A stretch of 64,000 nt of DNA from Escherichia coli. GTDB lineage: Bacteria; Pseudomonadota; Gammaproteobacteria; Enterobacterales; Enterobacteriaceae. A model generated the notes under the pieces. That model was given only the letters and a program-made list of their open reading frames with translations. It had not been told where the DNA came from and made no database searches. Position 1 is the stretch's first letter. Each line of letters opens with the position of its first letter. The DNA lies in the NCBI RefSeq assembly GCF_030013205.1, contig NZ_CP122648.1, one strand, 5' to 3'. Positions 52,677-53,555 of this stretch are shown piece after piece. Made by a program: the position numbers and the translations under genes.

Positions 52677-52774
52677 GTGAATCATCCGTTGATTAATCAT
52701 ATATAAATATTATGTATCAACAACTTACATTGACAAGCGACGCTACCATTAATCAAAATGACTCACAAGGTCCG

Positions 52775-53485
52775 AATAAATATCCTCCGGCATAGCCGGA
52801 GGTTTTTCAAATGCGCCTATAAGGCTCTCTTACCAGCCGCGCCCTAACAGGCGCACACGATCTGACATTTGCATCCAACTTCGTTACTTACGGCCCGTAA
52901 ACGGGCTGCCCGGATAGGGAATCGATAACTGCTCTCCCATTTTATCCTCTTCAAGCTGGTGCTTTATGTAATCCTGTATCTTCGCCGTGTTCTTACCCAC
53001 CGTATCGACGTAGTACCCTCTGCACCAGAACTCTCTGTTCCTGTATTTGAATTTCAAATCACCAAACTGCTCGTAAAGCATCAGACTGCTTTTCCCTTTC
53101 AGATATCCCATAAAGCCGGATACGCTCATTTTGGGCGGGATCTCCACAAGCATATGGATATGATCTGCACAGCATTCAGCTTCAAGAATCCGTACGCTTT
53201 TCCACTCACACAGCTTTCTCAAAATACTGCCTATTGCTCTACGCTTCTCTCTGTAGAACACTTGTCTTCGGTATTTTGGCGCAAAAACTATGTGATATTT
53301 ACAGTTCCATCGGGTGTGCGCTAAGCTCTTTTCGTTCCCCATTGGGACCCCCTTTTGATTTCTTGTTTGACACTTGCAGTTGCCAGACCGCAAGGTGTTT
53401 TAACAAATCAAAAGGGGTTTTAATAACTGGCTCAAAGCTGAAAGCTTTCCGGAACCCCCAGCCTAGCTGGGGGTTTTCTGTGCAC
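52775..53485 (-). mobile_element. IS200 insertion sequence (IS200/IS605 family), about 0.71 kb, tnpA only
   Basis: Contains a 152-aa Y1/HuH transposase ORF with the recalled hallmark features of IS200 (twin subterminal GC hairpins at 52784..52802 and 53455..53473, and an RBS-occluding inverted repeat in the tnpA leader). Boundaries estimated (+/- about 20 bp) from hairpin positions and the canonical ~707-bp length; not confirmed by alignment. Confidence 0.7.
52884..53342 (-). CDS. tnpA: IS200 transposase TnpA (Y1 HuH single-strand transposase)
   Basis: ORF track 52884..53393 trimmed to ATG at 53342 preceded by AAGGGGG RBS; protein MGNEKSLAHTRWNCKYHIVFAPKYRRQVFY...ADHIHMLVEIPP...YPGSPFTGRK matches the recalled IS200 TnpA (HuH motif HIH, catalytic Tyr region); 152 aa. 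Confidence 0.9.
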   Translation of the reverse strand: MGNEKSLAHTRWNCKYHIVFAPKYRRQVFYREKRRAIGSILRKLCEWKSVRILEAECCADHIHMLVEIPPKMSVSGFMGYLKGKSSLMLYEQFGDLKFKYRNREFWCRGYYVDTVGKNTAKIQDYIKHQLEEDKMGEQLSIPYPGSPFTGRK

Positions 53486-53555
53486 AAAAAAAACGCCGAC
53501 AATGTGCCGACGTTTTGATAAAGAAAGATTTGGCTATTTATTGCCCGTTGTTCAT

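Follow-up and report, generated by a model that had tools for sequence, protein, structure and literature searches.

Left end of an IS200C element between aroA and ycaL of Escherichia coli: a terminator hairpin, a Shine-Dalgarno-sequestering stem and a probable art200 locus as described for Salmonella IS200

The interval upstream of tnpA in an IS200C element of Escherichia coli represents, with a probability of about 0.9, an IS200 left end with the stacked controls that were already described for IS200 of Salmonella. The element lies in a window of 64,000 nucleotides from contig NZ_CP122648.1 (assembly GCF_030013205.1), in which the original prediction had pointed out a stem that sequesters the Shine-Dalgarno (SD) sequence of tnpA and a terminator hairpin that might end an antisense RNA. 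In the mechanism that we propose, the hairpin at 53453-53475 would stop transcription from the host side, i.e., read-through from serC-aroA past the aroA terminator, and could also stop plus-strand transcription leaving the element. The tnpA mRNA would start at approximately 53446 and contain a long stem-loop in its 5'UTR that buries the SD sequence and blocks binding of the 30S subunit, while a plus-strand promoter inside the first tnpA codons would drive art200 from position 53334. By analogy to IS608, the hairpin at 53453-53475 may also be bound by TnpA on single-stranded DNA, with the AAAA at its foot acting as guide for oligo-T. Sequences, folds and covariation were obtained in the present analysis, which also found the critical segments to be identical to those of IS200F and IS1541A; terminator activity, the effects of SD-stem mutations and the ends and mechanism of art200 were taken from the literature.

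The element is located between aroA and ycaL in the gene order serC-aroA / IS200C / ycaL-cmk, with all genes on the minus strand. Alignment with an unoccupied site showed that it splits the sequence GGTCCG-A8-CGCC, that the target T8 is kept whole on one side and that no target duplication was formed. The right boundary was set by the tail ATATTTATT, which is conserved across relatives, so that the empty-site comparison and the conserved tail together place an intact IS200C of 711 bp at 52775..53485 on the minus strand. Its left end directly adjoins the T8 run of the intrinsic terminator of aroA (53486..53516 on the minus strand; hairpin 53516..53490, T8 53493..53486), which was identified as the insertion target by a terminator scan and the empty-site comparison. 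The same insertion was present in 52 of 5,426 complete genomes, the window was 100% identical to E. coli strain K_EC180 over the query, and it contained a single copy of IS200C. The tnpA gene (52884..53342 including the stop codon, minus strand; RefSeq CDS WP_000526135.1) encodes a Y1 (HUH) transposase of 152 amino acids that matches Pfam PF01797 (Y1_Tnp) over its full length with 130.7 bits against a cutoff of 23, and RefSeq annotates an IS200C family transposase at this locus. A Y1 transposase of approximately 150 amino acids, hairpins near both ends, a length within the range of about 707-711 bp and the lack of both terminal inverted repeats and a target duplication are all found here, as in the IS200 group. 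Based on the transposase, both end hairpins and the empty-site comparison, this copy is an ordinary, intact member of IS200. Among the related loci, we also came across a circular 'plasmid' record of 713 bp from Salmonella (NZ_CP149227.1) that consists of a single IS200F element and nothing else. This record reflects either an error of assembly or a transposon circle that was captured after excision.

The start codon of tnpA is located at 53342..53340 on the minus strand. Upstream of it, the original prediction had described an inverted repeat formed by ACCCCCTTTTGATTT at 53347-53361 and AAATCAAAAGGGGT at 53405-53418, and these positions proved to be exact; an inverted-repeat search returned arms of 16 nt at 53349-53364 and 53402-53417 with 94% complementarity. 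The arm closer to tnpA, AAAUCAAAAGGGGGU (53347..53361, minus strand), contains the SD sequence AAGGGGGU at 53354..53347, which precedes the AUG at 53342 by 4 nt. When the minus-strand RNA from 53480 to 53330 was folded, as had been suggested along with the prediction, we obtained a stable structure of -60.5 kcal/mol (z = -4.7; none of 200 shuffled sequences was as stable) with three parts, namely the left-end hairpin, another hairpin of small size and a long stem-loop. In the lower 13 bp of the long stem, CCCCUUUUGAUUU (53417..53405) is paired with AAAUCAAAAGGGG (53361..53349), by which most of the SD sequence is covered. The minimum free energy and the centroid folds both paired 53349-53361 with 53405-53417 (z = -4.1 to -4.7), folds with a paired SD sequence had z-scores from -4.1 to -5.7, and the mRNA folded alone from the published start site yielded the same SD stem.

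The predicted anti-SD arm in the tnpA mRNA (53405..53417, minus strand) covers the sites of the lower-stem (LS) mutations that Ellis et al. (2015; PMC4513863) introduced at nucleotides -69 to -75 of tnpA, which correspond to 53411-53417 in the window. These mutants showed a 20-fold increase of the ribosome (30S) toeprint and a 50-fold increase of tnpA-lacZ expression. Earlier work, in the form summarized in PMC4513863, assigned the sequestration of the SD sequence to a second inverted repeat at IS200 nucleotides 69-138, which map to 53418..53349 when IS200 nucleotide N is placed at approximately 53486-N. The predicted pairing of the SD sequence and the published mutants of an identical Salmonella lower stem thus bear out the claim of SD sequestration: the stem that sequesters the SD sequence in the tnpA 5'UTR of IS200 is formed by the long inverted repeat. 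At its top, the folds contained an apical stem-loop, UGCGGUCUGGCAACUGCA (53373..53397, minus strand), which is nearly invariant in 54 relatives and corresponds to the published site of first pairing between art200 and tnpA by kissing loops, as determined by footprinting and with M1 loop mutants. Transcription of tnpA starts around IS200 nucleotide 40 (approximately 53446) according to the earlier work as summarized in PMC4513863. The small hairpin AAAGCUUUCAGCUUU (53434..53448, minus strand) reads AAAGCU-UUC-AGCUUU and overlaps this published start site; it was seen in the folds and is weakly conserved.

When representative genomes were scanned with TnpA, we obtained 80 loci with 66-94% protein identity, which ranged from Enterobacterales and Vibrio to numerous Firmicutes. 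Nearly all of these loci, when folded singly, showed the same three-part architecture with the SD sequence paired to an upstream anti-SD segment. For the analysis of covariation, the fold of the window's own sequence was projected onto a MAFFT alignment of 54 IS200-group left ends. This projection favours the window fold in the count of paired cells, which is offset by slid and shuffled controls and by the independent single-sequence folds. In total, 82.7% of the cells were paired, compared with approximately 34-44% when the 3' partners were slid by one to three columns, changes on both sides occurred in 30 of the 44 pairs, and the observed covariation score was not reached by any of 500 shuffles. 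The left-end hairpin was paired in 99.1% of the cells with compensatory changes in six of its ten pairs (for example CCCCCAGC/GCTGGGGG, CCACTCGC/GCGAGTGG and CCACGCGT/ACGCGTGG). In the SD stem (helix 4), 91.4% of the cells were paired and nine of twelve pairs were compensatory, as in ACCCCUUUUGA/UCAAAAGGGGGU versus ACUCCCUUUGC/GCAAAGGGAGGU, compared with around 40% paired cells in the slid controls. The small hairpin (helix 3) reached 68.8% paired cells, with double changes in three of six pairs. Covariation of this kind does not tell at which level the structure is selected, be it sense RNA, antisense RNA or single-stranded DNA. When RNAalifold was applied to the MAFFT alignment as such, only the apical stem and the left-end hairpin were recovered, because the upper portion of the long stem is misaligned by indels between subgroups. 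A chance origin of the inverted repeats was considered and is excluded by the z-scores of the folds, the Rfam match described below, the covariation and an expectation of zero pattern matches.

The apical stem-loop UGCGGUCUG(G/C)CAACUGCA (alignment columns 109-126) was almost invariant from E. coli to Firmicutes with approximately 70% TnpA identity, while the remaining 5'UTR diverged freely beside it. The published role in kissing-loop formation may explain this conservation, but its extent is striking. One of the apical pairs was G.U in 51 of the 54 sequences, for which the antisense RNA would carry a C.A mismatch.

The second structure named in the original prediction, the hairpin CCCCCAGC-cta-GCTGGGGG, was confirmed at 53455-53473, and flanking AA/TT pairs extend its stem to 53453-53475. 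The resulting subterminal hairpin AACCCCCAGC-cta-GCTGGGGGTT, present on both strands, has a perfect stem of 10 bp, and no chance match to this 23-nt pattern is expected in the window. It corresponds to IS200 nucleotides 12-34, which map to 53475..53453 and were described as a bidirectional Rho-independent terminator against impinging transcription in earlier work, as far as it is summarized in PMC4513863. In a 2017 paper from the same group as Ellis et al. (2015), this terminator was reported to stop approximately 85% of upstream transcripts. On the plus strand, the hairpin is followed by TTTTCT, so that a GC-rich stem of 8-10 bp precedes a U-tract as in Rho-independent terminators, and on the minus strand by just UU. 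The TTTT at 53474..53477, which reads AAAA at the 5' foot of the hairpin on the tnpA strand, could represent the U-tract for plus-strand termination, the left guide sequence of TnpA, or both. The hairpin had been regarded as part of the tnpA leader, which cannot be maintained: the start site of tnpA at about 53446 is downstream of it, and the hairpin therefore belongs to the end of the element. Both the left-end hairpin and the long stem of art200 were absent from the list of a simple terminator scan; our guess is that the flanking A-T pairs absorbed part of the T-run in the former and that the loop of the latter exceeded the limit of the scan. A weak Rfam match to RmaA (27.9 bits against a threshold of 57, E = 0.12) was rejected, as it merely combined the aroA terminator with the left-end hairpin.

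While the left-end hairpin is thus a genuine, published and bidirectional terminator with a TTTT on the plus strand, its proposed role in ending an antisense RNA was not supported. In Salmonella, art200 is an RNA of 90 nt by RNA-seq with 5' ends at IS200 nucleotides 153/154, and its sequence complements the 5'UTR of tnpA together with the initial three codons (PMC4513863). On Northern blots, STnc490/art200 was detected as an RNA of approximately 85 nt antisense to the tnpA start. Mapping of art200 in E. coli concerned the 5' ends only and was performed with a plasmid-borne Salmonella IS200. In the window, the first three tnpA codons reach to 53334, and nucleotides 78-84 of art200, which match -69 to -75 of tnpA (PMC4513863), are found at 53411-53417. 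This mapping is self-consistent and places nucleotide 1 of art200 at 53334 and nucleotide 90 at approximately 53423, which defines a putative art200 (STnc490) of 90 nt at ~53334..53423 on the plus strand with coordinates transferred from Salmonella. The corresponding plus-strand RNA was predicted to form a single extended hairpin (53349-53417) with UUUUAA behind it (-35.4 kcal/mol, z = -4.7). The mapped 3' end lies just behind GGGG-TTTT (53414-53421), and the T4 tract at 53418..53421 would form, together with the stem 53349-53417, the likely intrinsic terminator of art200. Judging from the sequence, the complement of the SD-sequestering stem with its U-tract is therefore likely to serve as the art200 terminator. 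In the 54 relatives, at least four U within the 6 nt after the antisense stem occurred in 47 and at least five U in 40, and the base composition predicts 11.5% for at least four. By inspection of the sequence, we further infer a promoter at 53298..53327 on the plus strand, with a -35 element TTTACA (53298-53303), a spacer of 18 nt, a -10 element TAAGCT (53322-53327) and a putative start at the G at 53334. These hexamers fit the published remark that the art200 promoter has a good -35 but an almost unrecognizable -10 element. The published art200 data, including expression and 3' end, probably hold for this copy in E. coli strains similar to K_EC180 as well, and art200 most likely terminates at its own stem and the T4 tract.

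It is improbable that the left-end hairpin at 53455-53473 and its T-tract instead terminate an art200-like RNA extending from approximately 53334 to 53478. Such a transcript would comprise around 145 nt, in contrast to the published sizes of 90 and ~85 nt, which indicates that this hairpin is not the terminator of art200, and we found no report of a longer form of art200 in the IS200 literature examined. Although the 10-bp stem of the hairpin is strong, has TTTTCT behind it on the plus strand and is called bidirectional in the literature, the mapped 3' end at ~53423 follows a conserved stem and U-tract 30 nt before it is reached. The conservation of AAAA on the tnpA strand, corresponding to UUUU in the antisense RNA, in 53 of the 54 relatives would suit termination at this site, but it has another likely reason in a function as TnpA guide or as foot of the hairpin. 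Since the U-tract of art200 consists of only four U, a part of the transcripts may plausibly read through as far as the left-end hairpin, for which this hairpin could serve as a back-up terminator at most. Even more doubtful, and in our view very unlikely, is the idea that the repeats matter solely as single-stranded DNA hairpins for TnpA and that all effects at the RNA level are incidental. Subterminal hairpins of 20-25 nt are the binding sites of IS200/IS605 transposases at either end, the two end hairpins of our element have a common form, and the pairs of the left-end hairpin are nearly all Watson-Crick, with two G.U among 540 cells. A role in DNA may well apply to the left-end hairpin in addition, yet termination at this hairpin was measured in the published work. 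For the long repeat the idea fails: this repeat of 70 nt is internal, lacks a counterpart at the right end and has the SD sequence itself as 3' arm, and both ribosome binding and expression increase when the anti-SD arm carries point mutations (PMC4513863). The interpretation as an IS200 left end with separate terminator, SD stem and art200 remains our preferred reading.

The end hairpins closely resemble each other. On the tnpA strand, the left end reads AGAAAA-CCCCCAGC-TAG-GCTGGGGG and the right end TGAAAAA-CCTCCGGC-TAT-GCCGGAGG, which can be summarized as GAAAA-CCNCCNGC-TAN-GCNGGNGG. The right-end subterminal hairpin CCTCCGGC-TAT-GCCGGAGG is located at 52784..52802, with GAAAAA before and ATATTTATT after it, and its form is conserved with covariation among the relatives. 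By virtue of this close likeness, and of the binding of both end hairpins by transposases of the family, the left-end hairpin is probably a transposase-binding hairpin on single-stranded DNA as well; our literature search found no direct demonstration of TnpA binding to hairpins of IS200 itself. In the IS200/IS605 family, the cleavage and target sites are selected by a guide of four nucleotides that lies at the hairpin's 5' foot. The foot of the left-end hairpin is AAAA in all but one of the 54 relatives, and all insertions follow a T-run. Inferred from the IS608 paradigm, the TTTT on the plus strand may thus at least partly represent the complement of a left guide sequence AAAA. That the T-tract is mainly such a guide complement, by which the IS200 group homes to intrinsic terminators of the host at the 3' edge of their T-run, is a tentative idea that we regard as possible but rather doubtful. 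If it were true, the left-end hairpin would terminate antisense transcripts merely as a side effect or as a safeguard against read-through from art200.

Irrespective of the mechanism, the left flanks of the related loci and of the element in the window show that IS200-group elements directly follow intrinsic terminators of the host and that tnpA points in the same direction as the terminated gene. At 41 of 43 independent loci, a strong hairpin ending in a T-run was formed by the 45 nt that precede the left end, and the mean minimum free energy (MFE) of these flanks was -20.2 kcal/mol, compared with -8.4 kcal/mol in windows located 100 nt further upstream. An MFE of at most -10 kcal/mol combined with at least five T in the last 8 nt was observed in 31 of 43 flanks versus none of 42 controls. 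The aroA terminator next to our element shows the same pattern of an element after a terminator. This placement could be due either to targeting, with oligo-T and a hairpin as the target, or to survival bias. Our searches retrieved nothing relevant on insertion of IS200 or IS1541 at terminators, and the main review on the IS200/IS605 family and the papers on IS1541 were outside the literature searched. At the other end of the element, the right-end hairpin CCTCCGGCTATGCCGGAGG followed by ATATTTATT (52775-52812) scored terminator-like on both strands and lies approximately 40 nt upstream of a predicted ycaL promoter (-35 element at 52736). The element thereby has a terminator-like hairpin at each end, and its position between the terminator of aroA and the promoter of ycaL leaves both of them undisturbed.

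The left end of Salmonella IS200 (Beuzon et al., 1999, as cited by Ellis et al.; PMC4513863) belongs to the same family and has the same layout as the left end analysed here. The comparison with Salmonella IS200 and art200, which had been suggested together with the original prediction, showed that the SD stem and the terminator hairpin correspond to published features. Over the whole element, identity to Salmonella IS200F is 92.6%, and the hairpin, the lower stem, the SD sequence AAGGGGGU, the U-tract and the spacing between them are identical in sequence. IS200C and Salmonella IS200 differ at a few positions of codon 3 and of the upper stem (53375-53400) and by the chromosomal site between aroA and ycaL, so that there is no difference in kind. 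The lower stem, the SD sequence, the hairpin and the flanking tracts are also identical in IS1541A of Yersinia pestis, and IS200C, IS200F and IS1541A do not differ in the region of the art200 promoter. The sequence features of art200/STnc490 from IS200 and IS1541 (Sittka et al., 2008; Ellis et al., 2015), namely the promoter region, the start context, the 90-nt layout and the stem with U4, are present in the window. With IS608 and ISDra2, the element shares a hairpin of approximately 23 nt close to each end, four nucleotides at the 5' foot (AAAA in this case) and insertion 3' of a short target (oligo-T in this case) without duplication. In contrast to these elements, IS200 lacks tnpB, and its left-end hairpin doubles as a transcription terminator. 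A further parallel is found in RNA-OUT and RNA-IN of IS10, where a short, stable and highly structured antisense RNA also covers the transposase start and blocks ribosome binding. Unlike in IS10, art200 acts without Hfq, its pairing is limited to approximately 40 bp of the upper stem-loops, and IS200 adds the intramolecular SD-sequestering stem.

The Rfam family RF01405 (STnc490) matched 53352..53475 on the minus strand with 146.4 bits against a gathering threshold of 56 (E = 6.9e-31), and the match covered model positions 1-124 of 124. The model represents the tnpA-sense orientation together with the left-end terminator hairpin, and STnc490/art200 itself is the antisense RNA on the plus strand at ~53334-53423. 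An annotation based on Rfam would therefore assign both the wrong strand and the wrong ends to the STnc490 sRNA. A match to 'STnc490' on the tnpA strand marks the left end and 5'UTR of an IS200 and not the antisense RNA.

Both the SD stem and the terminator hairpin are already known for IS200, and the finding matters little beyond the correct annotation of such elements. It assigns separate jobs to the two structures: the left-end hairpin protects tnpA against read-through from the host and is probably bound by the transposase, and the long stem acts as a trap for the SD sequence in the sense RNA and probably as a terminator in the antisense RNA. This copy of IS200C looks fully intact and probably expresses art200 and the structured 5'tnpA RNA, both of which are regulators in Salmonella.
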